From Abditibacterium sp. (GTDB taxonomy: Bacteria; Armatimonadota; Abditibacteriia; Abditibacteriales; Abditibacteriaceae): DNA of 64,000 nt. Shown one piece after another: positions 5,118 through 62,814 of this stretch. The position numbers and the translations under genes were made by a program. Numbering within the stretch: the stretch's first letter is position 1; each line of letters begins with the position of its first letter. The DNA lies in the NCBI GenBank assembly GCA_965199495.1, contig CBDASK010000003.1, positions 4,480,001-4,544,000 on the forward strand. Direction: 5' to 3'. A model generated the notes under the pieces. The model did no database searches and had not been told where the DNA came from. It was given only the letters and a program-made list of their open reading frames with translations.

Positions 5118-5181
5118 ATGGAAACAGCGCGGCCAATGATGCAGCCACGTCGCCCGCGCGGTCTTCTAAAGAACCATCTCA

Positions 5182-5226
5182 AAATAAAAGAGCCGCTTCC
5201 CGTTTTGGGAAGCGGCTCTTTTATTT
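5182..5226. terminator. Bidirectional terminator
   Basis: aaataaaagagccgcttccc..gggaagcggctcttttattt between convergent genes. Confidence 0.85.
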
Positions 5227-5303
5227 CTCATTAATCTTCATGCTCTAAAGTGTCTGCATTTGGCTGTCTCGCACTTCTGCCGAATCTGGTTTGCATCCGT
5301 ATT

Positions 5304-6719
5304 TCACTTCGCCAACTTCATCTTCTCCATCAACTGGCGTTGCTGCTCATCCATCTGGCGCCGATAGGTCTGCCATCGCGCCTCTTCCAAACCCTGTAAA
5401 TGTTTGGGCCACCATTGCGCGCCCACTTCGGCGACTTGCTCTTGCCGGGCATCGAATGCGGAGCGCGGCAGAACTGGCCCCAATTCCGAAACGAGGCGCG
5501 CCAGTATCTGATGAGCACCAAAAGCGACATCGCCTTGCGGGTCGCGAAGCGCGACGAGCAGATAAGGCACGCTACTTTCGTCAGCCAACTTACCGAGAGC
5601 CTGAATTGCGGCTCGCCGAGTGGTTTCGCTCCGCATGAACAATGCTTCGTTGAGCATAGGCAACTCCTCGGCATCGTGCGTTTGACCAGCTTTCAATTCG
5701 ATGGAATCTTTGGCTTCGGCGCGGGAATGTTTGCCCGCTAATTCATCGTGCCACCAGGAAAAGAACAATTGTCGCTCGCCCGTCTTTTGTTTCTCGAACT
5801 GATCTGAACTGAAATTGTTGGGCACCGCGGGCAAAATATCGTGCAAAACGGCGCAACTATAAGGCGCGACAAACTTCTGCGGGTCTTGATCGTATAACGC
5901 CAGTAACAAGAAAGGAACCGAATCTCTTGTCGCCATGTTGGACAACGCCATGACCGAGTTCAACCGGATGCCGCTGGGAGAAGCGAACATCGCTTTTTCC
6001 AGAAAAGGTTTGGCCTCTTTGACTTTATACTCGCTGATTAGCGGACCCGATGCGCCCCCAAAGGTGAAACTCTTAGCACGAGCCACGATCATTGGAATGG
6101 CAGAAACTTGCTGGTTTCGAGCGAAGTTTGATAACGCAGCATCAGCAATATAATCATCTTTATCGTTCACGTAGCGAGCCAGAAATTGCATCGCGGATTT
6201 GGTGCGAAACTGTGATAGCAAGAAAACGGACAGCTGACGCAGAGAATCCTCCTCGCATCCTTTGGCAAGAATTCGCTCGACGTTTTGCTCTGGCGTTAAG
6301 CTCTCGTCTACGAGCGAAATCGCGGCTTCGGACAATGGAACCAAAGAGGCACATTCGGTCCTGAGCTTAAATCCCTCTTTATCATCTGGAATCAGAAGCA
6401 CAAGAAAATTGTCTCCTTCTCTGATTCTGAACGAGAAAAATAGATTACGATAGTAATCCCTGTCTATATCCCACCGAGGATTGAGCGAAATTTTCTGTGG
6501 AGCCTCGCCTTTGATACTCTTCTTGAGAGACAGAACGATCTTCTCGCTTCGATCAAAGTAAGTCGCGTTAGGATCCTCCCCCTCTTCGGCTTGAGCAATA
6601 GCAATGACAGGTGTAGAACGGACAACCGCATCGAAGCTTGAAGGATTTAAAATTCTTGCAAAACTGCTTCCTGTGCCGAGTAACACAGCACAGAGAACAA
6701 AGAAAGTCAATTTGAACAT
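5304..6719 (-). CDS. Secreted HEAT-repeat protein
   Basis: Signal peptide; repeats RxxAxxALGxL..SVPYLLxALxD. Confidence 0.8.
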   Translation of the reverse strand: MFKLTFFVLCAVLLGTGSSFARILNPSSFDAVVRSTPVIAIAQAEEGEDPNATYFDRSEKIVLSLKKSIKGEAPQKISLNPRWDIDRDYYRNLFFSFRIREGDNFLVLLIPDDKEGFKLRTECASLVPLSEAAISLVDESLTPEQNVERILAKGCEEDSLRQLSVFLLSQFRTKSAMQFLARYVNDKDDYIADAALSNFARNQQVSAIPMIVARAKSFTFGGASGPLISEYKVKEAKPFLEKAMFASPSGIRLNSVMALSNMATRDSVPFLLLALYDQDPQKFVAPYSCAVLHDILPAVPNNFSSDQFEKQKTGERQLFFSWWHDELAGKHSRAEAKDSIELKAGQTHDAEELPMLNEALFMRSETTRRAAIQALGKLADESSVPYLLVALRDPQGDVAFGAHQILARLVSELGPVLPRSAFDARQEQVAEVGAQWWPKHLQGLEEARWQTYRRQMDEQQRQLMEKMKLAK

Positions 6720-6875
6720 TTGATATGGTGTTCCGCAAAGGGAATTAGGAAGCGGTTTTCCGACCTTTCGAGGTTAGCAAAGTTGCTTTTGCGAAAAATG
6801 AACCCTCATTTTCAACAGGAGTTACGCAAATGCTTCCAACCGTAGGTAGCGGCCTTTTATGAGATGCAACCGTGC

Positions 6876-6973
6876 CGTAGAGACACCGGCTTATCGTGTC
6901 TAAAATGTCAATGAACGCCACAAGGTTAAAGCAAATCCGGCGTTTTTAGACACGACAAGTCGGTGTCTCTACG
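6876..6973. repeat. REP/REPIN-like inverted repeat, family A (GTAGAGACACCG..TAAAA)
   Basis: About 30-bp inverted arms; related copies at 13136, 21430, 30998, half copy at 44481. Confidence 0.85.
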
Positions 6974-7024
6974 ATACGGCGGCGCAATCCACAACAATAA
7001 TTATCAGCGAGGCTTAACGCAACC

Positions 7025-7060
7025 AAAAAGCGCCGTTCCCCATTGGGAACGGCGCTTTTT
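7025..7060 (-). terminator. Intrinsic terminator
   Basis: aaaaagcgccgttccc-catt-gggaacggcgcttttt. Confidence 0.85.
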
Positions 7061-7074
7061 ACATTCCAGCAGAC

Positions 7075-8793
7075 TCATTTCGCTAACGAAATGCCCGCGA
7101 TTTTGACGTTGGGATTGTTCGGCAAAGTCAGGCTTTGCACCGTCTTATTCGCGTCGAGCGCGAAACCATAGGAATACATCGAGAACGAGCGCGGGTCATT
7201 CGTGCCGTCCATCATGACGCGGCCTTCGGTTTTGATGGCGCGGGTTTCGCCGGGAAAGCTCTGTGGCGCATACCAATCGCTGAAGTTTTGCACCAGAGTT
7301 TGTTTGGTGCCATCGGCGTAATTCACCACGAATTCCTGCGCGCGTTGACCGCCTTCGACTGCGGCGCCCAGCATCCACAACGACGCATATTTGCCCGATG
7401 GCAAATTCACCGTCGCGCCGTTGGCCGTCACGATGTTGTTGACGCCGGGCGTGCCCAGCTTGAAATTCACGTTTTTGGAGGTGACCATCGCGCCGACATC
7501 CTGGGACGAAAACGCCGCGCCGCCGCCATCAAAGCCTTTATCGGCGCCAAATACGGAGCCAGCTTTCACGAAACCCAAAGCATTGAAAGTTTTGGACAGA
7601 TCAACTGCTACGCTCGAATTGGGCGCGACAACTGGCAACTCGCGCGGTCTGTCGGCCAGAGCCACCGGTGGCGTAATCACACCTTTGGGATCGGCTTTAT
7701 AGGCGGCCAAAAACTCCTGCCACAGCGTCGGCGCATCTTTGCCGGTATATTCTTTCCATTTTTCCGGCGTATAGCGGCCAAAGCGCGTGTCGGCATTGAG
7801 CTTGGTGACCAAACGCGAATCGTAGTGCAATTCGCACCACGCCAGAAATGCGCCGGTCGTGCGATACGAATCGTTGTAGTTGGACTTGTCCGTGATATTG
7901 TAGGTAAAATTCTGCGGCTCGAACTTGACCCAGCGCAGATAATCGGCGGTGCCCTCGATGAGCCAGACCGGATTGTAGGCGCTCATCGCCTGGACGACGT
8001 GCGCGACTTCGTGAACCGTCAGGCCGGTGTCATCGGGATGCGCGCCCGCCCACGCAGTGTTAACCGTCATCTCGCCGCCGCCGGTGGCTGCTACGCCCGT
8101 CACGTTGGGGCCGGTACGATAAAAAATGTTGACCTTGTTGGGCGTGATGAAATTATCGGTGTAAAGCACCGCTTCCATTTCGGGCCAGAACTCCATCATC
8201 TGCTTGTCGGCTTTGGCGGCCCAGACTTTGAGGTTGGCGGGCACTTCGTTGCCCTCGAAGGGACGACCGGCGCCCCATTGAACGTGCGAAATTTTGGTTG
8301 GAGAATCAAGAGTAATTTCGCGAATTATCAACGACGCCAAGCCGGTGCCCGCGTTGATTTTGATGCGCAACGCCATAATCGCCTGATTGTTCAAGTTGCC
8401 CGTCGCCACGCCTTTACTATCGAAAGTCGCGGCGCGTTTGTAGGTTTTGCCATCGGTCGAAACTTCGACATAACCTTTGGTCAGCAAGTTGTCACCGTCG
8501 GCGTTGCCAGTTGTAATGGTCATCGAACGCACGGGCAGAGGCCGCGAAAACAGAACGGTGAAATCGTCGCCATCGCCCATGCCATAAACCGTTTTGTAGT
8601 AGGAATTTTGATCGCCATCCATCGCCAGTTCGGCGCGGTTAGCGCGCATCGAGGGCATCGTGGAATAGAGCGTTGCCTCGGTTTCGGGGGGCGCAGCCAT
8701 TGGCATTGCCACCGGTGCGGGTGCGAGCGCGTTTTGCGCGTGGCAACTCGAAGTCAGTCCGGCCAGAGCAGCGAGAAAAAGGATTTGTTTCAT
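7075..8793 (-). CDS. Secreted BSP-family (basic secretory protein) metallopeptidase with flanking beta-sandwich domains
   Basis: HEVAH..WLIEGTADYLR motif; discoidin-like N-terminal region; signal peptide. Confidence 0.8.
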   Translation of the reverse strand: MKQILFLAALAGLTSSCHAQNALAPAPVAMPMAAPPETEATLYSTMPSMRANRAELAMDGDQNSYYKTVYGMGDGDDFTVLFSRPLPVRSMTITTGNADGDNLLTKGYVEVSTDGKTYKRAATFDSKGVATGNLNNQAIMALRIKINAGTGLASLIIREITLDSPTKISHVQWGAGRPFEGNEVPANLKVWAAKADKQMMEFWPEMEAVLYTDNFITPNKVNIFYRTGPNVTGVAATGGGEMTVNTAWAGAHPDDTGLTVHEVAHVVQAMSAYNPVWLIEGTADYLRWVKFEPQNFTYNITDKSNYNDSYRTTGAFLAWCELHYDSRLVTKLNADTRFGRYTPEKWKEYTGKDAPTLWQEFLAAYKADPKGVITPPVALADRPRELPVVAPNSSVAVDLSKTFNALGFVKAGSVFGADKGFDGGGAAFSSQDVGAMVTSKNVNFKLGTPGVNNIVTANGATVNLPSGKYASLWMLGAAVEGGQRAQEFVVNYADGTKQTLVQNFSDWYAPQSFPGETRAIKTEGRVMMDGTNDPRSFSMYSYGFALDANKTVQSLTLPNNPNVKIAGISLAK

Positions 8794-9067
8794 GGGAGGG
8801 TTATCAAATTAAAATGCCCGCTTTGGTATAGCTAAAAAATCGGGCTTTCACAATACCAATATCAATTCGTAAGACAACTCTTCTGTGTTTCAGATTCACA
8901 TAAATTTCAAATTTTCGCCGCATTGTTCCGCATTCCGTCTGCGCGCTATAAACTTATCGTGACGGATTTCTTCGGGCCAATTCGCGCAACCAGAACAGAA
9001 AAAATCGTTCAAAAATCCGTCTAATTTAAGATACCGGTATTGATTATCGGTTAAACTTTCATTAATC

Positions 9068-13131: not shown

Positions 13132-13135
13132 CGTC

Positions 13136-13297: not shown

Positions 13298-15364
13298 ATG
13301 GCCCAATCGCTCCATGTCCCCTCTGGCGAAGTCGTTGATTCGCCCACGCCAACAGCAGCCACGGCGCGCGCTGGAGGCGTGACGTTTCGCGTGGTCGTTC
13401 TCTGTTTGCTGCTGGCCTTCGCCTTCGGCTATTTACTGCCGGTCATTGATTACAAGCTCTACAACACGTTTTTGGGCGCGACGCACTTGCCGCCCGGCGC
13501 GGTCGGCGTGTTGATGATTTTGTTATTGGTCATCAATCCGTTGTTGAAGTTGCTCTCGAAAAATTGGGCATTTTCGCGCGAAGAATCGCTGACGGTTTAT
13601 ATTTCGTGCCTGTTTTCCAGCTTGGTGCCCGGACACGGCGCCGAAACTTTGATCGTTCCGTCGCTGGTCACGCCGTTTTACTACGCGACGCGCGAGAACA
13701 AATGGCTCGACTGGCTGCAACCCTATCTCAAACCGTGGCTGACTCCGGCGCTCAATCCCGATCATAGCTACAACGCGGCGGTCGCGAACGGTTGGTTCAA
13801 CGGCTTGCAACCGGGCGTAGCCATTCCGTGGGGGGCGTGGCTGATACCGCTCGCCGTGTGGATGAGCATGGTTTTGGTTTCGTATGGCATGATGGCGTGC
13901 CTGAGCGTGATACTGCGCCGCCAGTGGGCGGGCAACGAAGCGCTCGCATTTCCGCTTTTGCGTTTGCCGCTCGAAATGGTCGAGCAATCCACGACTTCGG
14001 TTCGTGGCAACGACGGCGTTTCGTTCTGGCGCAACAACTTGATGTGGTGCGGTTTCGGCCTCGTCTTTTTCATCCAAACGATTCGCGGCTTGCACACCTA
14101 TTTCCCCGATGTCCCCGATTTTCCGCTCGATCTCAATTTGAATCCGTATCTGAGCGAACCGCCGTGGAATCAGATGGACGGCATTTACGTGCAGATTTTT
14201 CCCATCGCCATCGGCATTACTTATCTTTTGTCGTCGGAAGTAGCTTTGTCGCTGTGGACGGGTTATTGGTTCATCAAGCTGCAATATATCGTCGCTTATT
14301 ATTGCGGCTATCGCGTTTCGGGCTTGCCGTCGTCGGGCTTTTCCTATGGCAAGGCGTTCGCGTTTTTTCAGGTTCAGGGCGCCTACTGGATGTATGTCGG
14401 ATTGCTGATGTGGACGGCGCGCCATCATCTGCGCGCTGTCTTCTTGCGCGCCATCGGACGCACGCCAGCCGATGCCGAAGAACACACCGAGATGATGAGT
14501 TATCCGTTCGCGTTCTGGGGTTTCGTGACGTGCTTTGCGATTCTCACCGGTTTCGCGGTTTTGGCGGGCGTGCGCCTCGACATCGCCTTGACTTTATGGA
14601 TTTGCTATCTGGCGTTCGCCATCGCTCTGACGCGCGTGGCTGTCGAAGGCGGTTTGCTGATGCTGCTCCATGATTCCGCGCCGATTGGCGCTCTGGCGCG
14701 CCTGCTGCCGGGCGGCGGAGCGGGCTGGCTGTCGCTGAAAAACGGATTGATGCCCGCCGCGCTGATTCAGGACGGTTTTATTATCCATATGCGCGGTTTT
14801 ATCACGCCGTCGTTTTTGCACGCATTTAAACTGGCGCACGATCAAAAAATCGCGCCGCGCCGTTTGGGCGGCTTGCTGACGGGCGTGATTTTCATCTCGG
14901 TCGTGGTTTCATGGATAACCTGCGTTCATTTGGGCTACGACAATGGTGGACTGACTTTAGCCAACACCGGGTGGTCGAAGGTGCTGTCGAACAAGTCCAT
15001 CGAATTCGTGACGACGATGACGAACGATCCCAAAACGTCGTCTTCGTTCAACATTTTCTGGTTTAGCTTCGGCTCGCTCATCACCTTTGGCATGATGTTC
15101 GCGCGCGCGCGTTTGAGCTGGTTTCCGTTCCATCCGGCGGGCTATCTGATGAGCCTGACGTGGCCGGGCGCGGCGCTGTGGTCTTCGATTTTTATCGGTT
15201 GGATCGTTAAATCCATTATCATGCGCTACGGCGGCCCCGATACGTATCGTCGCGCGACGCCGTTTTTTCTGGGCTTAGCTCTGGGCGATGTCGCCAGTGT
15301 TTTACTGTGGCTCGCCATTGACGGCTGGCAAGGACATACACTTCATATGTTGATGCCCGATTAA
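13298..15364 (+). CDS. Polytopic membrane protein, DUF6785/DUF6784-like (putative transporter)
   Basis: Many TM segments; LRRQW..E.LAFPL, WFPFHPAGY, RYGG..YRR..PFFLGL motifs. Confidence 0.7.
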   Translation: MAQSLHVPSGEVVDSPTPTAATARAGGVTFRVVVLCLLLAFAFGYLLPVIDYKLYNTFLGATHLPPGAVGVLMILLLVINPLLKLLSKNWAFSREESLTVYISCLFSSLVPGHGAETLIVPSLVTPFYYATRENKWLDWLQPYLKPWLTPALNPDHSYNAAVANGWFNGLQPGVAIPWGAWLIPLAVWMSMVLVSYGMMACLSVILRRQWAGNEALAFPLLRLPLEMVEQSTTSVRGNDGVSFWRNNLMWCGFGLVFFIQTIRGLHTYFPDVPDFPLDLNLNPYLSEPPWNQMDGIYVQIFPIAIGITYLLSSEVALSLWTGYWFIKLQYIVAYYCGYRVSGLPSSGFSYGKAFAFFQVQGAYWMYVGLLMWTARHHLRAVFLRAIGRTPADAEEHTEMMSYPFAFWGFVTCFAILTGFAVLAGVRLDIALTLWICYLAFAIALTRVAVEGGLLMLLHDSAPIGALARLLPGGGAGWLSLKNGLMPAALIQDGFIIHMRGFITPSFLHAFKLAHDQKIAPRRLGGLLTGVIFISVVVSWITCVHLGYDNGGLTLANTGWSKVLSNKSIEFVTTMTNDPKTSSSFNIFWFSFGSLITFGMMFARARLSWFPFHPAGYLMSLTWPGAALWSSIFIGWIVKSIIMRYGGPDTYRRATPFFLGLALGDVASVLLWLAIDGWQGHTLHMLMPD

Positions 15365-17335: not shown

Positions 17336-18202
17336 CTATTTTACCGGGCCGCGCTGTGGCAATGGTAGGACGTGAAAACCGGATGACGGTTCGCCCGGCT
17401 TGCCGGGAACGGGCAACGGCATATTGTAGAACGGCTGACCGTTGAACTCGCGTTTTTCCCCGTTGGGCAACGGCTGAAGGCGCCCGAAGTTTTTCGGCCA
17501 GGTAAAATCGGGGGCGATACGTGGCAATGTCCGATCTCGCTCCGACAAAAAAGGGACGCCATCGAACGGAGGCGGAACAACGCGTAAATCTTTGGAAGGC
17601 GGCAGCAAATCGAAGCGCTGCCAGGTGCCATCGGGCATTTGAAAATAATTTGTCGGGCCGTTGGTCACAATGGGTTTAGCGGCGAAGAAATAGGTGCCCG
17701 CCGCCGATTTCCATTTTTCAATCGCTTCGCCACGAATCAGCGCCTCGCTCACATCATCGAACGCGTCGTCTTTGACGGCGTTGAAAATAAACGAACGCGT
17801 TGTGGCCGGAAGAAATTTAATTTCGGGATCGATGACGATGCGAACGCCCAAAACTTTGGCGAGTTGGCGCAACGCCTGACCAGTGTCTTGCCGCACGATT
17901 TCGATGGCGAAATTTGACTTCGACGTTTTCAGCCGCGTGCCCGCCGGTTGGTTCTGATCGAAATGGGGAAAAGATTCGCTGGCATCGGGAAACAATCCCA
18001 ACTGAATTCTATCCTTCTTGTCCACCTGAACGCTCCCGCCATCGCGTCGAGGCGCGAACGCGTCAGGCGCGCGCAGTAGCGGCCCAAAATCAGGGGCGTT
18101 CTTTAGTTGAACGCCGTAATCGTCATCGGCAACGAACTGAGCATTGGCCGTGGCTGCCAATGCAGCCACGGCGGCAAGGGCGATTAAAATTGGGGTTTTC
18201 AT
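17336..18202 (-). CDS. Secreted hypothetical protein, tandem paralog 3
   Basis: Signal MKTPILIALAAVAALAATANAQ; GTYFF and KREFNG motifs shared with neighbours. Confidence 0.85.
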   Translation of the reverse strand: MKTPILIALAAVAALAATANAQFVADDDYGVQLKNAPDFGPLLRAPDAFAPRRDGGSVQVDKKDRIQLGLFPDASESFPHFDQNQPAGTRLKTSKSNFAIEIVRQDTGQALRQLAKVLGVRIVIDPEIKFLPATTRSFIFNAVKDDAFDDVSEALIRGEAIEKWKSAAGTYFFAAKPIVTNGPTNYFQMPDGTWQRFDLLPPSKDLRVVPPPFDGVPFLSERDRTLPRIAPDFTWPKNFGRLQPLPNGEKREFNGQPFYNMPLPVPGKPGEPSSGFHVLPLPQRGPVK

Positions 18203-18210
18203 GTCTTTGG

Positions 18211-18990
18211 TTATTTGGCCAAATCCGATTGAGGCAAACCGGGGATATAATAAAATTCGTGTCCGTTGAACTCGCGCTTTTGCCAGTTCGGTTGCGGCTC
18301 GACGGACCGACCAAAATAATCCTTTGGGTTTAAACCTCCGTTGGGATAAACAAACGGATCATAGCGCGGATCGTTGAGCAACTTTTCGCGTTCAAGTTGA
18401 TACTTCTTTCCTTGTTCGTCCAAATCTTGCATTAGCTTCTCAATCGCGCGATTGGGCACCGCCGCAAAAAAGTATGTGCCCGCCGACGATTTCCACATTT
18501 CAGCGCCGCCGATTTTCAACAAATCTTCCCAAGTCGCGGCGCGCACAACTGCGAGACTATAACGCGAGTTCTTCAATACCGGATCAATTACGGCATTTAT
18601 GCCCATAACCGACGTTATGGTAGCCAAAACATCAAACGTACTTTGGCGTACAATCTCAGCTTGAAAAATCTCGCCGCGATAGGTTTGCAAAACCCGAATT
18701 TTGGTGCCAGCCGCTTGAGCCGTATTGAGCTTTGGATAAGCGGGCAACTTTGGATCAAACATCAACTGAACGTCTAAAGGCAGTTTGTCAAGCGGAATCG
18801 GTAATTCACCTGTCCATTGCGGCGGCACGAACTCTTCACCATTCAACTGAATCGGTGCGTGGAATAATGGGCCAATATTAGGAATATCTCGCAACGGAAC
18901 ACCGTCGTTGTTATTCGGAACTGTTTGCGCGTTCGCCGTGGCTGCCAGAGCAGCCACGGCGCCAAGGGCGAAGAGAATTTGGGTTTTCAT
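18211..18990 (-). CDS. Secreted hypothetical protein, tandem paralog 2
   Basis: Same signal peptide; VMGINAVIDP, GTYFF, KREFNGHEFYYIP. Confidence 0.85.
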   Translation of the reverse strand: MKTQILFALGAVAALAATANAQTVPNNNDGVPLRDIPNIGPLFHAPIQLNGEEFVPPQWTGELPIPLDKLPLDVQLMFDPKLPAYPKLNTAQAAGTKIRVLQTYRGEIFQAEIVRQSTFDVLATITSVMGINAVIDPVLKNSRYSLAVVRAATWEDLLKIGGAEMWKSSAGTYFFAAVPNRAIEKLMQDLDEQGKKYQLEREKLLNDPRYDPFVYPNGGLNPKDYFGRSVEPQPNWQKREFNGHEFYYIPGLPQSDLAK

Positions 18991-19009
18991 GTTGTTGTTT
19001 TTCCTTGAT

Positions 19010-19738
19010 TTATTTGGCCGATTTCGGTTGAGGCAGATTGGGAATATAATAAAATTCGTGGCCGTTAAACTCGCGTTTTTCCCAGTGCGGTTGCGGTTCT
19101 ATCGGTCTTCCCATCCGATCTCTGGGATTTAACCCACCGCGCGGAATTACAAACGGGTCGAAATTTGGGTCTTGTCGCAGTTTTTTTTGTTCAGTGGCGT
19201 AATCGTTAGGTTGTGAACTGTAATTGGATGGAATTTTGAGGTTCAAACCAGTGGGTTTGTCACCGAAAAAATAAGTGCCCGACGGTGATTTCACCATCTC
19301 GACTCCAAAGTTGAACGAAGCCAATAATTCGTCCCAACTCAAACCCCGGAAAACTTGTGTGATAGTGAGTTCCTTTTCGAGTTTTGGATCAATAACAGCG
19401 CGCACGCCCATGACATCGGTAATCTTTTTTAAAATAGCCGCCCGACTTTGTTCGTTGGCTTCGAGCTGAAGAATGTCGCCCTTCAGGCTTTTCAACACGC
19501 TCAATTTTAATTTGTCATTGTTGGCGAATCTACGTTTGGGAACTGGCGGCATTTCAGAACCGAAAAGAGGATTTTGTTCAGAGTGCCCAATCTCAATTGA
19601 AAGGCGAAACGATTCGCCGATGTTGGGAATATCTTTCAATTGAACATTGCCGTTTTTGCTGTCGGCAGTTTGCGCATTTGCCGCGCCCGCCAATGCAGCC
19701 ACGGCGCCCAGGGCGATTAAAATTTGAATTTTCATCAT
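19010..19738 (-). CDS. Secreted hypothetical protein, tandem paralog 1
   Basis: Same signal peptide; VMGVRAVIDP, GTYFF, KREFNGHEFYYIP. Confidence 0.85.
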   Translation of the reverse strand: MMKIQILIALGAVAALAGAANAQTADSKNGNVQLKDIPNIGESFRLSIEIGHSEQNPLFGSEMPPVPKRRFANNDKLKLSVLKSLKGDILQLEANEQSRAAILKKITDVMGVRAVIDPKLEKELTITQVFRGLSWDELLASFNFGVEMVKSPSGTYFFGDKPTGLNLKIPSNYSSQPNDYATEQKKLRQDPNFDPFVIPRGGLNPRDRMGRPIEPQPHWEKREFNGHEFYYIPNLPQPKSAK

Positions 19739-34288: not shown

Positions 34289-34319
34289 CGACAGCAGCCA
34301 CGGCGAGCAGATATTCCGC

Positions 34320-36636: not shown

Positions 36637-38364
36637 CTACTTCGGTACTGCCGTCGCTGGCGCCGCAACCGCGACAGCAGCCACGGCGGGCGCGGCGCCG
36701 ATATAAAATGGGAAATGCGCGGTTTCGCTCCACTTTCCCGCGCCATCGCGGGCGCGCACATGTAGCCACCACAATCCGCTTTTTCCGGCGAGTGGGATTT
36801 CTAACTCGGCGCCACTTCGCGTGGTTTCGTCGGGCATCGTGTCGGGTTTTTGATCCAAAACATACGAGACGCCCGTCAGTCCGCTCAAATCTCGATTGTC
36901 AACTTTGGCTTTGAGCGTGCCTTCGACGCGCGGCGCTGGGCGCCAATCGTCGATCCACAGTTGAACGCCGCGCGCGTTGCCCGTCCATCCAGCGTCGGAA
37001 AATTGGATGTTCGATAGTTTGAAATCGGTCGCATCGGGTTGGGCTTTTTGCAAGCTCGCCAGCAGATCAACCGTCGCGAGGTGCCACTGCGAATCGGCTT
37101 TGACATCGGCGATGGTCGCGACGCGGACGTTGGGATTATCGCGGTCGAGGAAGCGAATCGAATAGGGTTTGCCGCCCCAGTTGAAAGTCAAATCGGCTCG
37201 CACGCGGTCGTCGGTGCGGTAGGCGAAAGTCAAAACCGGAAATTGGGCCGCGTCTAAAATCGTTTTGCTCAGGCCCGCGCGAAACGGCGAGGCGGTGATT
37301 TTGTTGGTCAGTCGCAAACTGCGCGCACCCGTGGCTGCTGTGCTATCGTCGCTTTCGATATACGCGCTGTTATCATCCGATTGCCACGGCGCGGGCGAGC
37401 CAAACTCCATGTCGTTCCATGCAGCCACGGTGGCGCCATTGATTTTCAGCGTCGGCAACGGCGGCGCGGCTAATTCGGCATAGTTCAGCGTGACTGCGCC
37501 ATTGGCGACGGGTGCATCGGCGCGCGTCAGTCTCCAACCCACGCTTTGCCCGTCTTTGAGCGCGACGTCGTTATTTGCGCCGACATCGGCGATTAAACCG
37601 ACATCGGGCACCAGAAATTGCTGTGCGTTTTCAATCTTCGTGACACCTTCAATTTCTAATTTGAGATTATCAAAATTGAAATTCGATAAATCTCCCATTG
37701 GCAAGATGAATTTTTGGCCTTCCCAACGCGCCGGGCCGAACTGCGGGGTTTCATCGCGGTGTTCCAATTGCAAATCGTCCATTTGCCAATTGGCGCCCGG
37801 CCCGTTGCCGCCGATGCCCGCCATCAGATAACCGGTATTGTCCCAGTTGCCGATCAAAATCTCATCAATCGTCACGGTTTTGGCGTCGGGCAAAACGCTG
37901 CGCAACCAACCTCGCAGCGGGATATGCGCGCGCTTCCATCCGTCTTTGCCCGCGCCAATTTGAACGTCGCCCAGCAAAATCGCGCCGGGCCGCACGCCAG
38001 TTGGGCCGAGAAAATGAACGCCGTAGTAGTTGCCGTTGGCGCGAAAAAACCAGTTGATTTTTGTATCGGGCGACGCCTTGAAATCGAAAGTTAAATCGGT
38101 GATTTGGTCAACGTCGAGCGGTGTGATATTCAATTGAACGCCAAACGAACCGGGCGAGCGATTGACGATATTGAGCGCGCCGTTATCGAGCGCGACTTCG
38201 GCGCCCGAAGCCACGCCGCCGGGCGCGGCATAAGAGGAAACAATTTTGAGATCGTCGGGTTTGGAGAAATCAACGACGCGCGGTTGCATTGCGGCGGGCG
38301 GCGTGGCTGGAGTTTGGGCGAAGGCGGGAGCGGAGAATAAAAGGACGAGGAAAACGGGGCGCAC
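36637..38364 (-). CDS. Secreted protein with probable carbohydrate-binding beta-sandwich domains
   Basis: GTG start gives signal MRPVFLVLLFSAPAFAQ; two similar domains (W..A.I.L..L); C-terminal WLHVRARDGAGKWS. Confidence 0.65.
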   Translation of the reverse strand: MRPVFLVLLFSAPAFAQTPATPPAAMQPRVVDFSKPDDLKIVSSYAAPGGVASGAEVALDNGALNIVNRSPGSFGVQLNITPLDVDQITDLTFDFKASPDTKINWFFRANGNYYGVHFLGPTGVRPGAILLGDVQIGAGKDGWKRAHIPLRGWLRSVLPDAKTVTIDEILIGNWDNTGYLMAGIGGNGPGANWQMDDLQLEHRDETPQFGPARWEGQKFILPMGDLSNFNFDNLKLEIEGVTKIENAQQFLVPDVGLIADVGANNDVALKDGQSVGWRLTRADAPVANGAVTLNYAELAAPPLPTLKINGATVAAWNDMEFGSPAPWQSDDNSAYIESDDSTAATGARSLRLTNKITASPFRAGLSKTILDAAQFPVLTFAYRTDDRVRADLTFNWGGKPYSIRFLDRDNPNVRVATIADVKADSQWHLATVDLLASLQKAQPDATDFKLSNIQFSDAGWTGNARGVQLWIDDWRPAPRVEGTLKAKVDNRDLSGLTGVSYVLDQKPDTMPDETTRSGAELEIPLAGKSGLWWLHVRARDGAGKWSETAHFPFYIGAAPAVAAVAVAAPATAVPK

Positions 38365-38430
38365 GGGAAAGTTAGAAGCGATTGAAGCCGCGCGAGTTCC
38401 GGCGTTGCAGATTTCGTAGCAAATGTTCGT

Positions 38431-38481
38431 GCGAAGTAAGTCGGAGTTGCGCTGCATTTGGACAACTCCGACTTACTTCGC
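38431..38481. repeat. Intergenic inverted repeat
   Basis: gcgaagtaagtcggagttg / caactccgacttacttcgc, 19-bp perfect arms. Confidence 0.75.
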
Positions 38482-49014: not shown

Positions 49015-49071
49015 GCCCCTCGCCAAAGCAAAGGCGCGGCCACAAACCGCCCATGTCGGCGCCGTGGCTGC

Positions 49072-49449
49072 TTAAATCGAGACAGTGCGTTCGCGCAGGA
49101 ACGCTTCGAGTTGGTCGCGATCCATTTCGCTGGAAGCGATTTGAAGAAAAATTTCGATAATTTCTTCGATACTGGCTTCTATTTCTAAATCGTAGGAATC
49201 CAAGAAAACCAACATTGCCGCCGCCGCGACGCGTTTATTACCATCAACAAACGCGTGCGCTTTCGACAGGTGAAATCCATAAGTTGCCGCGCATCTAATT
49301 TCGTCAACTTCTTCGTGATTTGTGCGATTGATGGGCGCCATCAAAGCTGACTCGAAAGCGCCTTCATCACGCATACCGTAAGAACCGCCGAACTCCTCAA
49401 TGCCGTCGCGGTGAAGTTCGAGAACTTTTTCTTTGGAGAGAAAGTTCAC
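49072..49449 (-). CDS. doc: Doc-family (Fic) toxin
   Basis: HAFVDGNKR motif; GGSYGMRDEG; 125 aa. Confidence 0.92.
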   Translation of the reverse strand: MNFLSKEKVLELHRDGIEEFGGSYGMRDEGAFESALMAPINRTNHEEVDEIRCAATYGFHLSKAHAFVDGNKRVAAAAMLVFLDSYDLEIEASIEEIIEIFLQIASSEMDRDQLEAFLRERTVSI

Positions 49450-50920: not shown

Positions 50921-52039
50921 ATGCCAGTCAGTTCAATGAAAGACTTGCTCGAAGCGGGAGTTCACTTCGGGCATCACACGCGCAAGTGGAACCCCAAAAT
51001 GAAGCCGTATATCTACGGCGCGCGCAACGATATTTACATTATCGACCTCCACAAAACCCGCAAGAAACTCGAAGTCGCCTACGATAAAGTGCGCCAGATG
51101 GCCTACGAAGGCAAATCGTTCTTGTTCGTCGGCACCAAAAAGCAGGCGCAAGACGCCATCGCCGAAGCAGCCACGTCGTGCAACAGCTTTTACGTCAACC
51201 ATCGTTGGCTGGGCGGAATGCTCACCAACTGGAATACGGTGCAGTTGCGCATTGACCGCTTGAATCAAATCGACAAGATGAACGAGGACGGCACTTTGGC
51301 CAAGCTGGTCAAGAAAGAGCAGTTCCGCATCATGGAAGAGCGCGAAAAGCTCGACAACGTTTTGGGCGGCATCCGCACCATGACGAGCTTGCCCGACGTG
51401 ATTTTCATCATCGATTGCAAAAAGGAACATATCGCCATCAAAGAGGCGCACCGCCTGGAGATTCCGATTGTCGCCGTCGTTGATACCAACTGCGATCCGG
51501 AAGAAATTGATTACGTAATTCCCGGCAACGACGACGCGATTCGCGCCGTTTCGCTGATGGCCGACCAGATGGCGCAGGCGATTAACGAAGGTCGTTTGAT
51601 GGCGGAGAGCGTGCGCGAAGAGCGCGCCGGACAATTATCCGGTGCGGGCGCGGCGCACTTTGGCGGCGGACAGATCGACTATGTCGGCGCCGAGAACGTG
51701 CAGTTCTCGCCGGTTTCGACCGACGACGATGAATCTTCGTTTGAGGAAGAGATGGCGAAACCGTTAGGCGAAATGCCGCGCGACGCCAAAGGCGATACCG
51801 ACGTTGACGCTTCGGCACGCGCGACTGGCGGCATGAACGTCGGCGCGACTTCGCTGGGCGATGCCGCGATGTTCGAGCCAGCCGCGCAGACCACGACCGA
51901 CGAGAGCTTCGCCACGGGTGGCGCCACGGTTATCGACCAGCCAGTTGAGGGCAAGCCGACGCCGGACGCGGTTCCCGTTATCGAGAACGAAGGTGGCGCG
52001 GTTGACCGCGAAGTCAACAAAGCCGTCGCGAACGCGTAA
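50921..52039 (+). CDS. rpsB: 30S ribosomal protein S2 with long acidic C-terminal extension
   Basis: [33 protein letters not shown]. Confidence 0.98.
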
Positions 52040-52252: not shown

Positions 52253-53107
52253 ATGGCGACAATTTCAGCCGCACAAGTCAAAGAACTGCGCGAGCGCACC
52301 GGCCTCGCTATGATGGATTGTAAGAAAGCGCTCGTTGATACCGATGGTGACATGGAAGCCGCCGTCGAGCATCTGCGCGAAAAGAACAAAAATCTCGTAG
52401 TGAAAAAAGCGGGCCGCGAAGCCAACGAAGGCGCCATCGGCGTGTTCGTCGTCGAAGATGGGCGTTCGGGCGCGATTATCGAGGTCAACTGCGAAACCGA
52501 TTTCGTGGCGAAAAACCCCGATTTCCGCGAACTGGCTTACGATTTGGCTTATCAAGCCGCTTTGTCGGGCGACGCCGATGTCGAGACGTTTCTGAGCAAA
52601 CCGTTCATCAAAGATGAAAAAGTCACGGTTCAGGAAAAAATCACTGAATACATGGGCAAGTTGGGCGAAAACATCGTCGTTGGTCGCTTTGCGACTGTCG
52701 GCGCGCAAAACGGCGTCATCGGTTCGTATGTCCACTCGGACGCCAAAAAAGGCGCGCTCATCGTGGCCGAAGGCGCCGATAGCGACGAAGCCAAAGAAGT
52801 CGCGCGCGACGTGGCGATGCAAGCCGTTGCGTTGCGCGCGCCTTATGTGAACCGCGAAAAAGTGCCGTCCGATGTCATCGAATCGGAAAAGGCATTGTAT
52901 CGCACGCAAGCCGCCGAAGAGGGCAAACCCGAAGCGATGCAAGACAAAATCGCCGAAGGACGCCTGAACAAATATTACGGCGAGAACACGTTGGCCGAAC
53001 AGAAGTTCATCAAAGACGAGAGCGGCAAAATGTCGGTTTCGGACGTGGCGAAACAAGCGGGCGTGACGATTGACGATTTCGTAAGATACGAAGTCGGTCA
53101 AAGCTAA
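52253..53107 (+). CDS. tsf: Elongation factor Ts
   Basis: VKELRERTG..MMDCKKAL, EVNCETDFVA. Confidence 0.98.
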   Translation: MATISAAQVKELRERTGLAMMDCKKALVDTDGDMEAAVEHLREKNKNLVVKKAGREANEGAIGVFVVEDGRSGAIIEVNCETDFVAKNPDFRELAYDLAYQAALSGDADVETFLSKPFIKDEKVTVQEKITEYMGKLGENIVVGRFATVGAQNGVIGSYVHSDAKKGALIVAEGADSDEAKEVARDVAMQAVALRAPYVNREKVPSDVIESEKALYRTQAAEEGKPEAMQDKIAEGRLNKYYGENTLAEQKFIKDESGKMSVSDVAKQAGVTIDDFVRYEVGQS

Positions 53108-57306: not shown

Positions 57307-57383
57307 TTCGTGCCTCGAATTGACTCAGACCGACGCAATTCAAAATACACTCAAGAGCGCGCTTCTTTGCGCGTGACTTTCTC

Positions 57384-59228
57384 TTGCCTTCTCCCAAAAC
57401 TCCTTTCGACCGCAACGACGCCGATAGCGCGCGGGCCGTCGCGCGCAAACTGATTCCCGACCCGAAGGCGCGCCGTCGCGCGCTCGAATTTTTGCGCGAT
57501 GGCATCGCGCGCGCGCACGCCATTGACGCGGCCAGTTGGGGCGTGACATTGGCGCCCAGTCGCATTCGTTTCAACGTGGGGCGCGGCAGTCGTCTGACAA
57601 TTGCGCCCGATGCGCTCGAATGGAAAGGTCACGAAAGCGCGAAAATCGAAACCGAAAGCGATGTCAAAATGCCCGACGATTGGCTCAACGCGTTAGAAAT
57701 CGAGGCGAGCGAATTCGAGGGCGCTTGGTTTTCCAATCCGGCGTGGCGCCAGGCGCATTCGCCGGGCGTTTTGAAACTGCTGGAAGAAGAGTTCGGCCAG
57801 CCGATGCCCACGCCCGATTACGCGCCACAAAATGTGGAGTCCGACGAAAACTCAGATTGGAAAGCGACGCTGCAAAACGTGATTGTAAGCGCCGATTTGC
57901 GGCTCGATGCGAATTACTTGGCGACGTTTTTCACCGCGCTCCAACTCAAAGGTTTCGCGGTTTTGAGCGGCCTGAGCGGGACGGGAAAAACGCGCTTGGC
58001 GACGAGTTTCGCGGCGCTATTGCCGCAACCGGGCGCGAGCGAAACGCAGGCGCACTTGGACGAAAATTTCGCCGTCAACGGGCGTTTGCATCTGCCCGCG
58101 CCCGCCGCGCGTTTGCTGAGCGGCGCGCGCGCGACTGTCACCTGCGAAGGCGCGGCGCATCCGGCGAAAATCGAAAAAAATTCTCTCGTTCTGCGCGGCG
58201 CTGGGCGCAAATGCGCCCTGAAATTGTTTGGAGAAGGCGCGCCCATCGGCGTCGAAAGCGAGTGGGACGACGCGGGCTACGCCAATTTCCGCTTGTTGCC
58301 GCTCGCGCCCAATGAAACGCCGAGCAATCATTTGTTCGTGCCGGTGCGGCCCGATTGGAGCGACGGCAAAGCGCTGTTAGGCTACTTCAACCCGCTGTTG
58401 TCGCGCTACGAATGGACGCCATTTCTCCGATTTCTGCTGCGCGCCGACGCCGGTTTTCGCGCCAACGACGGCATCGCTTATTTCGTGATTTTGGACGAGA
58501 TGAACTTGGCGCGCGCCGAACATTATTTCGCCGATTTGCTCTCGATTACAGAAAGCGGGCGCGATCAAATGGGCCGCACGCGCGAGCCGCTACGCTTCGA
58601 GTTCGACGCGCGCGCGAGTGGCGATTTGCCGCCGCGCGAATTGCGGTTGCCGCCCAATTTATATTTCGTCGGCACGCTCAACGCCGACGAAACGACTTAC
58701 GCGCTGTCGCCGAAAGTTTTGGATCGCGCGTGGATGCTGCAAGCGCCGCCCGTTGATTTTTGCGATTACCCGCCCAACATCGCCGCGCCCGCTGATGCAG
58801 CCACGGCGCCCGTGGCTGCATTGGCGCGCGTCGAGTTAAATCGCGTTTTCACACGCGACGGCCAGTTCGCGCGCGAAGATAAATCGTTAGTCGCGCGCGA
58901 ATTGGAAGCGCAACCCAAATGGCGCGACGATTTGCAAATTTTGAACGAACAATTGCAAGCGCACGACGCCGGTTTCGGCTATCGCGTCTTCGACGAAATC
59001 GTCGCGTTTTGCGCGTTATCGCGCCAGAGCGGCGCGTTTGAATCGGTCGAAATCGCCTTCGATTGCGCCGTGTGCGCCAAAATCCTTCCGCGATTAAGCG
59101 GCGCGCGCAATTCAGTTGAAGCGCCGCTGCAAATTATCGCGAGTTGGGCCAGTGAACGCGATTTGCGTCAAACGGTGGAGGCGGCAAATCGGCAAATCGC
59201 GAAGTTGGAGCGCGTGGGTTGGTTATAA
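57384..59228 (+). CDS. McrB-like AAA+ NTPase
   Basis: SGLSGTGKT, VPVRPDWSD, LDEMNLARAEHYFAD, GTLNADET..SPKVLDRA, KILPRL. Confidence 0.88.
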   Translation: MPSPKTPFDRNDADSARAVARKLIPDPKARRRALEFLRDGIARAHAIDAASWGVTLAPSRIRFNVGRGSRLTIAPDALEWKGHESAKIETESDVKMPDDWLNALEIEASEFEGAWFSNPAWRQAHSPGVLKLLEEEFGQPMPTPDYAPQNVESDENSDWKATLQNVIVSADLRLDANYLATFFTALQLKGFAVLSGLSGTGKTRLATSFAALLPQPGASETQAHLDENFAVNGRLHLPAPAARLLSGARATVTCEGAAHPAKIEKNSLVLRGAGRKCALKLFGEGAPIGVESEWDDAGYANFRLLPLAPNETPSNHLFVPVRPDWSDGKALLGYFNPLLSRYEWTPFLRFLLRADAGFRANDGIAYFVILDEMNLARAEHYFADLLSITESGRDQMGRTREPLRFEFDARASGDLPPRELRLPPNLYFVGTLNADETTYALSPKVLDRAWMLQAPPVDFCDYPPNIAAPADAATAPVAALARVELNRVFTRDGQFAREDKSLVARELEAQPKWRDDLQILNEQLQAHDAGFGYRVFDEIVAFCALSRQSGAFESVEIAFDCAVCAKILPRLSGARNSVEAPLQIIASWASERDLRQTVEAANRQIAKLERVGWL

Positions 59229-59249
59229 TTTGGGTTAAATATCAGACCA

Positions 59250-59684: not shown

Positions 59685-59697
59685 GACTCCGCTAATT

Positions 59698-60033: not shown

Positions 60034-60080
60034 TTTTTCGTCTTGTCACCCGCGCCTCAACTCTTACACTGTTGGGCGCT

Positions 60081-61007
60081 ATGGCAATTACTTCTGAAAT
60101 TGTGTCGTTTGGCGGGTGGGAAAACAATCTCGCGCTTTCCAACGATTATTGTGAGCTTCTTATTACTCTCGATGTTGGGCCGCGCGTGCTGTCGTTCGCG
60201 ATTAACGGCAAGCCCAATGTGTTCAAGGTTTTCAAAAACCAGACCGGCACGACCGGCGAAGATTTATGGATGAGTCGGGGCGGCCACCGTTTGTGGCTGG
60301 CGCCCGAATCGTATCCTTATTCGTATTATCCCGATAACGAGGCGGTGGATTATACGTTGCATCCCAACGGCGGCGTCACACTGATCGCGACCGATGAAAT
60401 GCCGCAGGGTTTTAGCAAGCAGATGGACATCAACCTCGCTCCCGACGCGGCGCGCGTGCGCATCGTGCATCGCCTCATCAACGTTGTGAATGAAGAACAG
60501 GAAGTCGCGGCGTGGGCCTTGTCGGTGATGGCGCCGGGCGGCGTGGCTGTGTTACCGCAGCCACGTCCGCACGCACATCCCGGCGGCGGGCCGGGCGATT
60601 TCGCGCCCAATCGCCAGCTCATCGCGTGGCCATTCACCGATTTATCCGACTCGCGCTTTCATCTGGGTAAAAATTATTGGACGGTCGCGCACGATGCCAA
60701 AAAGGGTGCCACCAAAATCGGCCTCAATTATCCGATGCCGTGGGCCGGTTATCACAACGGCGATACGCTGTTCGTCAAGCGTTTTGAATACGACAAAAAC
60801 GCCAGTTATCCCGACAAAGGCAGCAACGTCGAAATTTTCGCCAACGAAGATATTTTGGAACTCGAAACGCTTGGCCCCATGACCACGCTCAAGCCGGGCG
60901 GAGTGTTGGAATGGATTGAAGAATGGGAATTGTTTGGCAACGTGCCGCAATTTAATCCGACCAACGAAGCAGCCATTGGCGACGCGTTGAAGGGATTGGA
61001 TTTGTAG
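60081..61007 (+). CDS. Hypothetical protein, probable galactose-mutarotase-like fold
   Basis: LDVGPRV, GGHRLW.APE, YPD.G, ELETLGP. Confidence 0.7.
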   Translation: MAITSEIVSFGGWENNLALSNDYCELLITLDVGPRVLSFAINGKPNVFKVFKNQTGTTGEDLWMSRGGHRLWLAPESYPYSYYPDNEAVDYTLHPNGGVTLIATDEMPQGFSKQMDINLAPDAARVRIVHRLINVVNEEQEVAAWALSVMAPGGVAVLPQPRPHAHPGGGPGDFAPNRQLIAWPFTDLSDSRFHLGKNYWTVAHDAKKGATKIGLNYPMPWAGYHNGDTLFVKRFEYDKNASYPDKGSNVEIFANEDILELETLGPMTTLKPGGVLEWIEEWELFGNVPQFNPTNEAAIGDALKGLDL

Positions 61008-61014
61008 AAATTCA

Positions 61015-61076
61015 GTTGATGCGATATAAAATCGCAGCCAACGACTACGTTGGCTGCGATTTTATATCGCATCAAC
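61015..61076. repeat. Palindromic element, family D
   Basis: gttgatgcgatataaaatcgcagccaacg-acta-cgttggctgcgattttatatcgcatcaac. Confidence 0.85.
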
Positions 61077-61125
61077 ACGAAGAAGCGCAACCAAACCCCG
61101 CAGTTTTGCGTTGGAAACTCCCGCT

Positions 61126-61488
61126 ATGGCTTTACTTCCCTCCAAAACTATCGAATCGTTCCCCAATCCGCACCCGAACAACGATTACACCATTCAATTT
61201 TCGACGCAAGAATTTACCACGCTGTGCCCGATGACGAGCCAACCCGACTTCGCCACGATTTCTGTGGAATATTCGCCCGGCCCGCGCTGTCTCGAATCGA
61301 AAAGCATTAAACAGTATTTGTGGAGCTTTCGTGACGAAGGCAATTTTCACGAGGACGTGACCAACATTATTCTCAACGCGATGGTTGCCGCGTGCGAGCC
61401 GAAATGGATGACGGTGACCGGACATTTCAACGCGCGTGGCGGCATTGACTTCGTGATTACGGCCAAGTATGTGTCGGATAGTGCGTAA
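61126..61488 (+). CDS. queF: preQ1 synthase (type I QueF)
   Basis: EFTTLCP.T.QPDFA, ESKS.K.YL.SFR, FHE, RGG. Confidence 0.95.
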   Translation: MALLPSKTIESFPNPHPNNDYTIQFSTQEFTTLCPMTSQPDFATISVEYSPGPRCLESKSIKQYLWSFRDEGNFHEDVTNIILNAMVAACEPKWMTVTGHFNARGGIDFVITAKYVSDSA

Positions 61489-61492
61489 TTAT

Positions 61493-61585
61493 TTTGTGTG
61501 ACGTGCGGGGCTTGCGCCCTCTTCCCATTTTGGTGCGAAGGAATCTCCGATTGGAAGAGGGCGCAAGGCCCGCACGTCACACAAA
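61493..61585. repeat. Palindromic element resembling family C
   Basis: tttgtgtgacgtgcggg.cttgcgccctcttcc / ggaagagggcgcaag.cccgcacgtcacacaaa. Confidence 0.8.
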
Positions 61586-61617
61586 CTCGCTTTATTCAAT
61601 TCTCAAAGTCTGCACTT

Positions 61618-62814
61618 ATGCAAAAAATTCTCAGACCGTCGCTCGATTGGTTGCTACTTTGCGTGCCCATCGCGATTGCGATGAAAATTTTGGGTTCGTC
61701 GCCGACGTGGCTGTTCATCGTGGCGTGTCTGGCGGTCGTGCCGCTCGCCGGTTGGATGGGTCGCGCGACCGAGCATCTGGCCGAAAAAGTTGGCGAGGGC
61801 ATCGGCGGTTTGCTCAACGCGACGTTTGGCAACGCCGCCGAACTGATTATCGCTTTGATAGCCCTGCAAAAAGGTTTGTCTGGCGTCGTCAAAGCCTCGA
61901 TTACCGGCTCGATTATCGGCAATATTCTGTTGGTTTTGGGTTTGTCGTTCGTCGCGGGTGGGGTCAAATTTCCCGAACAGCGATTCAACAGAACGGCGGC
62001 GCGCTCGTCGGTCACGACCTTAATTTTAGCGGCGATTGCGCTGTTGTTGCCGACGGTATTTCATCGCACGGCGGGCCAAAGTTGGACGCCGCAACTCGAA
62101 CAAAATTTATCGCTGGGCATCGCCGTCGTGTTAATCCTCACTTACGCGGCCACGCTGGTATTTTCGCTGGTCACGCACAAAAAGCTGTTCTCTGGCAGCA
62201 GCCACGCCGCGCCCGAACATTCGCCCGATGACGAATTGAAGTCGAAAATCGCCATCGAACCGACAACAACGACGGCGCATGAACTCAGCGAAAGCGAGGG
62301 GCACGGCGAAGGTTGGAGCAAGAGCAAATCCATCGGCGTTTTGGTTGTCGCCACGATTTTCGTCGCACTGATGAGCGAATTTTTGGTCGGCTCCGTCGAA
62401 GCCGCGCGCGAGACTTTGGGTTTAACCGAAGTTTTCGTCGGCGTGATTGTCGTTGCCATTATTGGCAACGCCGCCGAACATTCGACATCGGTTTTGATGG
62501 CGATGCGCAACAAACCCGATTTGAGCATCGCGATTGCGCTGGGTTCGAGCATTCAAATCGCCCTTTTTGTGGCGCCGGTTTTGGTGTTCGCGTCTTATGC
62601 GTTTGGCAAACCCTTGAATTTAGAATTTACGATTCCCGAAGTCGCGGCGGTTTTGGCTTCGGTCGGTATCGTCAGCCAAATCGCGGGCGACGGCGAAAGC
62701 AACTGGCTCGAAGGCGCGCAGTTGCTGGCGGTTTACGCGGTTTTGGGAATTTTGTTTTTCTTCTTGCCCGAAATGGCGCACGGCGCTTCCAATGCACTCG
62801 GTAAAGCGCATTAA
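61618..62814 (+). CDS. cax: Calcium/proton exchanger
   Basis: [44 protein letters not shown]. Confidence 0.93.

Follow-up and report, generated by a model that had tools for sequence, protein, structure and literature searches.

Sequence-specific DNA uptake is established in two bacterial families. The DNA uptake sequence (DUS) of the Neisseriaceae is read by the pilin ComP and occurs in eight dialects (PMC3630211), and the uptake signal sequence (USS) of the Pasteurellaceae arises by point mutation, a second close USS adding nothing (PMC7811141). Cyanobacteria carry the highly iterated palindrome HIP1 and alternative HIPs (PMC4390886, PMC5861425, 10.1101/2024.09.10.611283, PMC13756078), many HIP1 hosts being without RecBCD (PMC5101192), and the GTAG-family repetitive extragenic palindromic (REP)/REPIN elements, with their RAYT nucleases, are a known repeat system (PMC3733652, PMC8266576). 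Here we describe a non-palindromic word, W-G-C-AGCCACG-B-C-G, that is dispersed over a 64,000-nt stretch of an Abditibacterium sp. genome (G000:C3:4,480,001-4,544,000; the window, meaning the whole stretch analyzed). As a lead only, the Atlas clusters closest to one window protein come mostly from Armatimonadota, and the many DUF1559-type prepilins would suit this phylum. The word is shown to be a DNA-level, strand-specific saturating signal with a reach of ~1 kb, independent of the direction of replication and of transcription, and kept by substitution.

The first-pass annotation had listed 35 copies of GCAGCCAC, optionally followed by G, on both strands, with a rough chance estimate of ~3. 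All 35 coordinates and strands proved exact, and 100 dinucleotide shuffles of the window gave a mean of 1.77 copies and a largest value of 4. Flank and single-mismatch scans revealed that, although GCAGCCAC(G) is indeed over-represented, the real word is longer: an invariant core, AGCCAC(G), is followed by a strong 3′ flank (B-C-G) and preceded by a weaker 5′ flank (W-G-C). The window holds 35 GCAGCCAC, 42 AGCCACGBCG and 88 AGCCAC. The source genome, G000 (4.81 Mb in three contigs, the main one a single 4.72 Mb contig, 95% complete), contains 2,801 copies of AGCCACGBCG, approximately one per 1.7 kb, and 2,073 of GCAGCCAC, where an order-4 Markov model predicts 275; the word family heads the lists of over-represented 6-9-mers. 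A mixture model assigned ~4,230 of the 6,436 AGCCAC to the signal.

With our own gene calls (3,956 genes, 85% of G000 coding), 2,607 of the 2,801 AGCCACGBCG copies (93%) were coding, 1,168 in sense and 1,439 in antisense orientation, and 190 of 2,799 sites were intergenic. Synonymous shuffles left 115±9 copies (8 within-gene shuffles) or 178±10 (8 shuffles preserving amino-acid-pair context), a 13-24-fold overall enrichment in coding DNA. All six reading frames were enriched, 4-49-fold, under codon-preserving shuffles, so that the excess goes beyond codon and amino-acid usage and is not confined to one frame. Of 368 AATA peptides, 289 were spelled exactly GCAGCCACGGCG, although GCA makes up 6% of alanine codons in G000. 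A codon or peptide artefact is ruled out by these shuffles, by the enrichment in six frames and by the AATA codon choice.

Sites of the word on the same strand avoid each other. Only 66 same-strand pairs lay closer than 400 bp, vs 332 expected, whereas opposite-strand pairs numbered 365 for the same expectation, and the same-strand deficit closed by ~1.5 kb. Strands of neighbouring sites alternated in 1,733 of 2,798 steps (1,399±26 in 2,000 permutations, with 1,493 the largest), and the gaps on each strand were even, with a coefficient of variation (CV) of 0.74-0.75 vs 1 for random placement. Three abundant control words showed no same-strand deficit. The exclusion was symmetric 5′ vs 3′, and no asymmetry appeared among weak or near-miss neighbours.

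The roles of transcript and DNA strand were separated with 3,442 scored sites at distances of 60-700 bp. The same-strand deficit was present inside single genes (138 vs 547), between genes of like (66 vs 114) or opposite orientation (23 vs 63, p=2e-5) and for pairs involving intergenic sites (31 vs 90), and was absent at 1.5-3 kb. Since the deficit is kept across oppositely oriented genes and at intergenic sites, it is tied to the DNA strand and not to the transcript, which rules out an RNA-level signal. A search of sequencing runs, made at the level of contigs, listed no RNA holder. The sister species, G011, repeats the exclusion (2 same-strand and 13 opposite-strand pairs, 15 expected; 116 sites in 240 kb). 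The palindromic sites of three other relatives (G035, G032 and G014; see below) also keep apart, with 25 pairs within 400 bp where 69 were expected. When saturation was simulated in a toy birth-death model, an orientation-blind rule thinned both classes of pairs, and a per-strand rule thinned only the same-strand class; this model had no decay of redundant sites, and one-sided action may thus still apply.

Known uptake systems served as controls. The DUS set comprised loci around inverted DUS pairs from named Neisseriaceae genomes (81 loci of at least 8 kb, 807 kb non-overlapping), and the USS set loci around inverted USS pairs from metagenome contigs (57 loci selected for their length and density of USS, 641 kb); these loci are partial and were picked around inverted pairs. 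The comparison uses unpaired sites. At 50-400 bp the same-strand, opposite-strand and expected counts were 55, 283 and 257 in G000, 16, 35 and 29 for USS, and 46, 64 and 51 for DUS; at 400-1,000 bp the same- and opposite-strand counts were 248 and 495, 55 and 57, and 97 and 100, respectively. G000 differed from the controls in both ranges (Fisher p=0.018 for USS and 1.5e-7 for DUS at 50-400 bp; p=0.0015 and 6e-5 at 400-1,000 bp). The USS control showed a real short-range bias of the same sign (16 vs 35, p=0.011). Uptake systems can therefore yield such exclusion, and the effect in G000 is not unique in kind, but much stronger and longer. What is new relative to known uptake words is the strong same-strand-only spacing rule over ~1 kb. 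We found no report of such a word in this group or of same-strand exclusion in the literature covered, which leaves aside subscription papers and the supplements of DUS/USS surveys, where spacing analyses may exist; a text search of 10.1101/2025.10.24.684340 gave no match on orientation or spacing.

The place of the word in the window is as follows.
5141..62206, both strands: dispersed word W-G-C-AGCCACG-B-C-G (counts, shuffles, flank scans)
5140..5152, plus strand: intergenic full-consensus copy T-GC-AGCCACG-T-CG, 3′ of an ABC-permease gene (sequence)
34293..34305, plus strand: intergenic full-consensus copy, flanked by two convergent genes (sequence)
49060..49072, minus strand: intergenic full-consensus copy (sequence)
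13354..13366, plus strand: copy in the most frequent of the sense frames, read as A-A-T-A close to the start of a DUF6785/DUF6784 protein (13298-15364)
18150..18169, no single strand: close inverted pair in the leader of gene 17336-18202, recurring at 18938/18950 in the look-alike gene 18211-18990
58797..58819, no single strand: close inverted pair within gene 57384-59228 (D-A-A-T-A-P-V-A-A)
36676..36688, plus strand: copy in the commonest antisense frame, A-V-A-A in gene 36637-38457
51167..51178, plus strand: copy in rpsB, which in its longest reading places it 5′ of the S2 family match (the start codon is uncertain)

The copies between genes at 5141, 34294 and 49064 are as the first-pass annotation described them. 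The three close inverted pairs that it reported are all present, but 18150/18162 and 18938/18950 are not independent, because the leaders of two adjacent look-alike genes are near-identical, and such pairs are a minor class genome-wide (150 of 2,796 sites). Its remark on signal peptides holds for the window (e.g., 13355, 15439 and 41592) and is borne out in the genes of G000, where sense copies are ~2x denser 30-120 nt after the start codon. Three adjacent look-alike secreted proteins without Pfam or NCBIfam match are encoded at 17336-19738, and their leaders hold 5 of the 35 copies. Elsewhere in the window, a single 811-aa frame (1311-3746) fuses an ABC sugar-binding domain to a permease domain, and EF-Ts (52253-53107) has a long form (~284 aa) in this genus, in g3 and in most of g6, vs ~200-230 aa in other genera.

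The word has no replichore polarity. With replichores assigned from GC skew, the 10-mer was found 1405 times on the leading and 1394 times on the lagging strand, whereas the FtsK-orienting polar sequence (KOPS) gave 273:107 in the same test, in agreement with the earlier argument that weak polarity speaks against Chi or KOPS. The 8-mer alone had a slight bias (955:1105). The strand skew flipping at origin and terminus that characterizes KOPS and architecture imparting sequences (AIMS) was not seen for the word, and a local G-C skew near sites (-5.6 and +5.0 per thousand) was discarded as lying within the scatter of 10 control words.

Comparison with relatives indicates that sites arise by point substitution, mostly without gaps, at tolerant residues, and are conserved between relatives. 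In G011, 70 of 95 gap-free sites were identical, vs 30% of control windows; in G004, 15 of 112 were identical, vs 23% of controls; and in the word-free G006 none of 18 sites was present, each differing by 1-6 substitutions. Residues at sites were 53% identical to those of word-free relatives, vs 65% in the flanks (126 site alignments, not independent), and 92% identical in G011, vs 88% elsewhere. A lower identity of the encoded residues than of their flanks is likewise reported for DUS and USS (PMC2817400). The word is scarce in DNA of foreign type: the plasmid-like contig C1 has 0 copies and the phage-like C2 has 2, vs ~53 expected at chromosome density, and the GCAGCCAC present there mostly lack the 3′ flank. 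The longest word-free gaps (8-23 kb) contain phage-, defence- and CRISPR-type genes, as judged by reading of gene starts, and no inverted pair of the word was found in viral contigs. One word-free region, G000:C3:2766400-2775200, carries a CRISPR array of ~131 repeats beside cas1/cas2-like genes. In 21 chosen repair and competence genes the density was 1.07 sites/kb, a modest excess over the 0.73 found overall.

CAGCCACGBCG is abundant in 3 of 27 family genomes (2,113 copies in G000, 1,776 in G011 and 720 in G004; the next has 94) and in none of 12 more distant genomes. De novo searches, on samples of 9-320 kb per genome, revealed different words in seven other family genomes, six of them AGTACT palindromes, and no such word in 20-100 kb samples of 15 further family genomes (G036 and G037 being outside the effective sample). 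G004 uses a drifted form, GACACCAGCCACGTCC, and 88 of its 236 sites lie in long inverted doublets. G001 has its own word, TTCCACAAAAAATGAAG, with ~2,035 core copies vs 17 in its sister G008, where they are clustered on few contigs; it is mostly extragenic, often in inverted pairs (29 of 71), with some copies in coding DNA (loci L253-L256, L034). The palindromic words are TCGAGTACTCGA in G035, TGCAAGTACTTGCA in G014 and CAAAGTACTTTG in G018; SRAGTACTYS has 2,299-3,287 copies in each of G032-G035 and G014 (5 of the 31 genomes of the class). In G032-G035, G014 and G018 the words are hyper-abundant and HIP-like, with AGTACT as core and lineage-specific flanks of 10-14 nt (loci L215-L219, L229-L232, L242-L243, L271-L272). 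GTAC is strongly avoided in G000, and 22 palindromic 6-mers on G000:C3 are very strongly avoided (observed/expected 0.25 or less). In a two-protein tree the word-positive genomes occupy at least four spots; words were therefore gained, lost or switched repeatedly.

Competence genes, whose presence the first-pass annotation had proposed as a check, were found in G000: comEC, comEA, dprA, a pilB-pilT-pilC-pilD cluster and four minor pilins. The pilus cluster also holds two large tip-like proteins, and recJ, recQ, mutS and mutL are present. Two modelled pilus proteins (pLDDT 77 and 63) revealed a generic pilin core (best Z 5.7, root-mean-square deviation 3.4, 84 residues) and sandwich domains, with a match to ComZ only at Z 3.4; PilX-type proteins suggested by an Atlas lead scored under 0.9 and were discarded. 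The two tandem pilus-tip-like proteins at L419:11694-19963 (1,330-1,340 aa) have no Pfam match; they are also in tandem in G004, G032 and G031, single elsewhere and missing at the locus in G017. In G038 pil genes are in pieces.

We conclude that the word is real, genome-wide and not explained by known members, and that it acts like an uptake sequence in most respects. As the first-pass annotation supposed, it resembles DUS and USS: a ~10-nt non-palindromic core with weaker flanks, thousands of copies on both strands and in all frames, origin by point mutation, conservation, depletion in acquired DNA and absence from islands, tree-following dialects, and competence genes. The resemblance stops at the predominantly coding location, at the rarity of terminator hairpins and at the strong same-strand-only exclusion to ~1 kb, which in the controls is weak and under ~400 bp; moreover, the word belongs to another phylum, and relatives use palindromes. 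The intergenic inverted terminator pairs of DUS/USS are seen in G004 (88/236) and G001 (29/71), but not as a trait of G000. For this reason, and because function and receptor are putative, we do not class the word as a member of DUS/USS.

We propose, with a probability of about one half, that the word may serve as a lineage-specific tag by which self DNA is recognized for homologous exchange, most likely in natural transformation, and that it was spread by biased gene conversion and is read per strand. Drive through homologous exchange would have raised it to thousands of copies, as for DUS/USS. A reader would recognize the word on one strand and favour that strand for entry or recombination, either by the choice of strand through ComEC or because the single strand that comes in is protected and loaded with RecA. 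Each copy would then serve ~1-2 kb of its own strand, so that a second same-strand copy would gain little drive, whereas an opposite-strand copy would serve the other strand and keep its full advantage. A palindromic word would serve both strands at once, which would explain the all-neighbour exclusion in the AGTACT relatives. Transformation is suggested as the route because this process hands one strand of either sense to RecA. A narrower and tentative version, which may well not hold, is that in bacteria without RecBCD/AddAB the self tag would be read on single-stranded DNA (import strand choice or RecA loading), and that, inside a single family, the reader would switch its specificity from HIP-like palindromes to DUS-like asymmetric words or back.

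Several observations weigh against a transformation tag. The exclusion is not clear in G004 (13 same-strand, 19 opposite-strand, 19 expected; unpaired sites) or for the own word of G001 (16 vs 22). The G000 word is 93% coding and 5% paired, whereas 35-65% of DUS/USS lie in open reading frames (PMC2817400). Competence genes do not discriminate, since comEC was found in each of the 13 genomes of the genus; all 20 sampled relatives have the pilus cluster, whether they carry a word or not, and several pil genes are in pieces in the word-positive G014 (assembly error or decay). No ComP- or ComZ-like reader was found by sequence comparison, Foldseek or the two modelled pilus proteins. Finally, other kinds of strand-specific gene conversion would leave a sequence pattern that cannot be told from that of transformation.

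Among the other explanations, a Chi-like recombinator in cells without RecBCD/AddAB survives best, and we regard it as unlikely. A helicase-nuclease would resect from DNA ends and stop at a word of one orientation; any replichore bias would be lost if the breaks were two-ended or the DNA were incoming and linear, and first-encounter use would thin same-strand neighbours. Like the Chi sites of RecBCD/AddAB, the G000 word is non-palindromic and its orientation matters, as the orientation-specific exclusion illustrates; unlike Chi, it has no replichore bias and is both longer and much commoner, and a family search, tblastn and a protein search found neither enzyme in G000. RecBCD/AddAB were not found in G004, G011, G035, G032 and G014 either, whereas all 10 genus genomes without the word have an AddAB-like pair. 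In addition, a 1,421-aa nuclease-helicase is present in exactly 3 of 13 genus genomes, those with the word, and HIP1 acted in a Chi-like, addAB-independent manner in Synechococcus (10.1101/2024.09.10.611283). Loss of AddAB as the cause looked perfect (3/3 vs 10/10), but the 10 AddAB genomes form one clade and hence amount to one phylogenetic event, with exceptions: G001 has AddAB plus its own word, and in G017 and G013, both without AddAB, no word was seen in 43-60 kb. The nuclease-helicase was rejected as a reader: it does not track the words outside the genus, being in pieces in G011, present in G016 and G017, which are word-free, and not found in the genomes with AGTACT words. Weak and near-miss neighbours show no 5′/3′ asymmetry, and known Chi sites are shorter and strand-biased (PMC5861425). 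The AddAB-like helicase-nuclease loci are L030-L036 (G006, G009, G012, G010, G001, G008, G002); the rest of the family appears to be without RecBCD/AddAB.

A methylation ratchet is improbable. In this scheme, which is Elhai's HIP model moved to a one-strand mark, a methyltransferase would mark one strand of the core, repair would pick the template by the mark, and sites would be fixed until one per ~1 kb per strand was reached. Under Elhai's model, saturation is expected at about one site per 1,000 nt (PMC4390886), close to the range seen here; mutS and mutL are present, G000 has several one-strand-type enzymes (MmeI-, ISP- and Eco57I-like), and relatives carry HIP-like palindromes. The G000 word shares with HIP1 its hyper-abundance in coding DNA, a density of 0.6-1 per kb, lack of polarity, conservation, lineage switches and extended flanks. 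The AGTACT words are palindromic like HIP1, whereas the G000 word is not, and where HIP1 periodicity is reported at 10-90 kb, the G000 word shows strand-specific exclusion at 1 kb. Fourfold-site divergence between G000 and G011 was flat, 0.283-0.289 (±0.01), with distance from the site (24,201 sites), so that the lower divergence near sites was not borne out in G011, which counts against a replication-error repair mark; in G004 there was a slight trend in transitions, from 0.105 to 0.125. Usual methyltransferase sites are shorter than the 10-18-nt consensus. None of the three candidate methyltransferases compared across genomes, of ~10, tracks the word.

Several methyltransferases were set aside individually. 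The Eco57I-like and ISP-like enzymes do not track the word: one methyltransferase is common to G000 and G011 only (34% in G004), and a specificity domain is found in part in G011 and G004 but also occurs in the word-free G009. The RsrI-like enzyme is family-wide and missing from G004; this orphan beta-class methyltransferase (L422:1692-2396; G000:C3:1807692-1808396) is conserved in 21 of the 26 other genomes of the family, is broken in G003 and G006, and was not found in four other class genomes. The MjaI-type pair next to mutS has the look of an ordinary restriction pair. At L420:1698-3543 (G000:C3:2187698-2189543), directly downstream of mutS, lie an MjaI-family endonuclease and a methyltransferase with a weak C-terminal SNase-like match. 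A G035 enzyme considered as the AGTACT methyltransferase is half of a pair shared with G004.

Slightly less credible still is that a pilin reads the word on duplex DNA as an ordinary uptake sequence, without regard to orientation, the strand pattern being a by-product. Most DUS/USS traits are present, USS-type loci have a same-strand deficit under 400 bp, and G004 and G001 are rich in terminator-like inverted pairs, as is Neisseria. However, such a signal should thin opposite-strand neighbours too, as in the toy model, and G000 shows no such thinning; it also departs from the USS and DUS controls in either distance range. A directional chromosome protein (nucleoid organiser, primase or restart factor) whose binding sites are selected for even coverage would account for the even per-strand spacing (CV 0.74-0.75) and the conserved positions, but is very improbable: there is no replichore polarity despite ordinary replichores, word-free islands of 8-23 kb are tolerated, and close relatives do without a word of this kind.

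That the copies are leftovers of a mobile REP element, or an artefact of codons or peptides, is hardly conceivable and already largely refuted: the REP flanking a RAYT-like gene contains GCAGCCAC, the genus-wide REP has the letters GCAGCCA and the G004 and G001 copies are often long extragenic inverted doublets, but REP accounts for only 19-21 of the 2,073 copies (1% of sites), is also found in the word-free G006, G008 and G009, and differs from the G000 copies, which are single, coding, hairpin-free and made by substitution, not insertion, with 13-24-fold enrichment left after codon-preserving shuffles. A RAYT/REP origin of the G000 word is thus ruled out. The RAYT-like Y1 gene itself (G000:C3:3721449-3721901; L042 in G004) is flanked by REP doublets GCGAAT-NN-ATTCGCAGCCA, a family found genus-wide, and at L042 one REP copy carries the core of the G000 word followed directly by the word of G001. 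Three more extragenic repeat families, with 161, 123 and 91 copies of their core words, occur on G000:C3.

To our knowledge, the role of HIP1 has been open for three decades. If the narrower version holds, with a reader of switching specificity, a single per-strand drive would have led to both HIP1 and uptake sequences, and any genome could be tested for such drive from sequence alone by way of same-strand exclusion. A family in which asymmetric and palindromic words interchange beside word-free relatives is a natural experiment for finding the reader gene, and the per-strand spacing points to the step at which the word is read. The absence of the word marks foreign DNA in these genomes, and its presence could raise the transformation of these little-studied bacteria.

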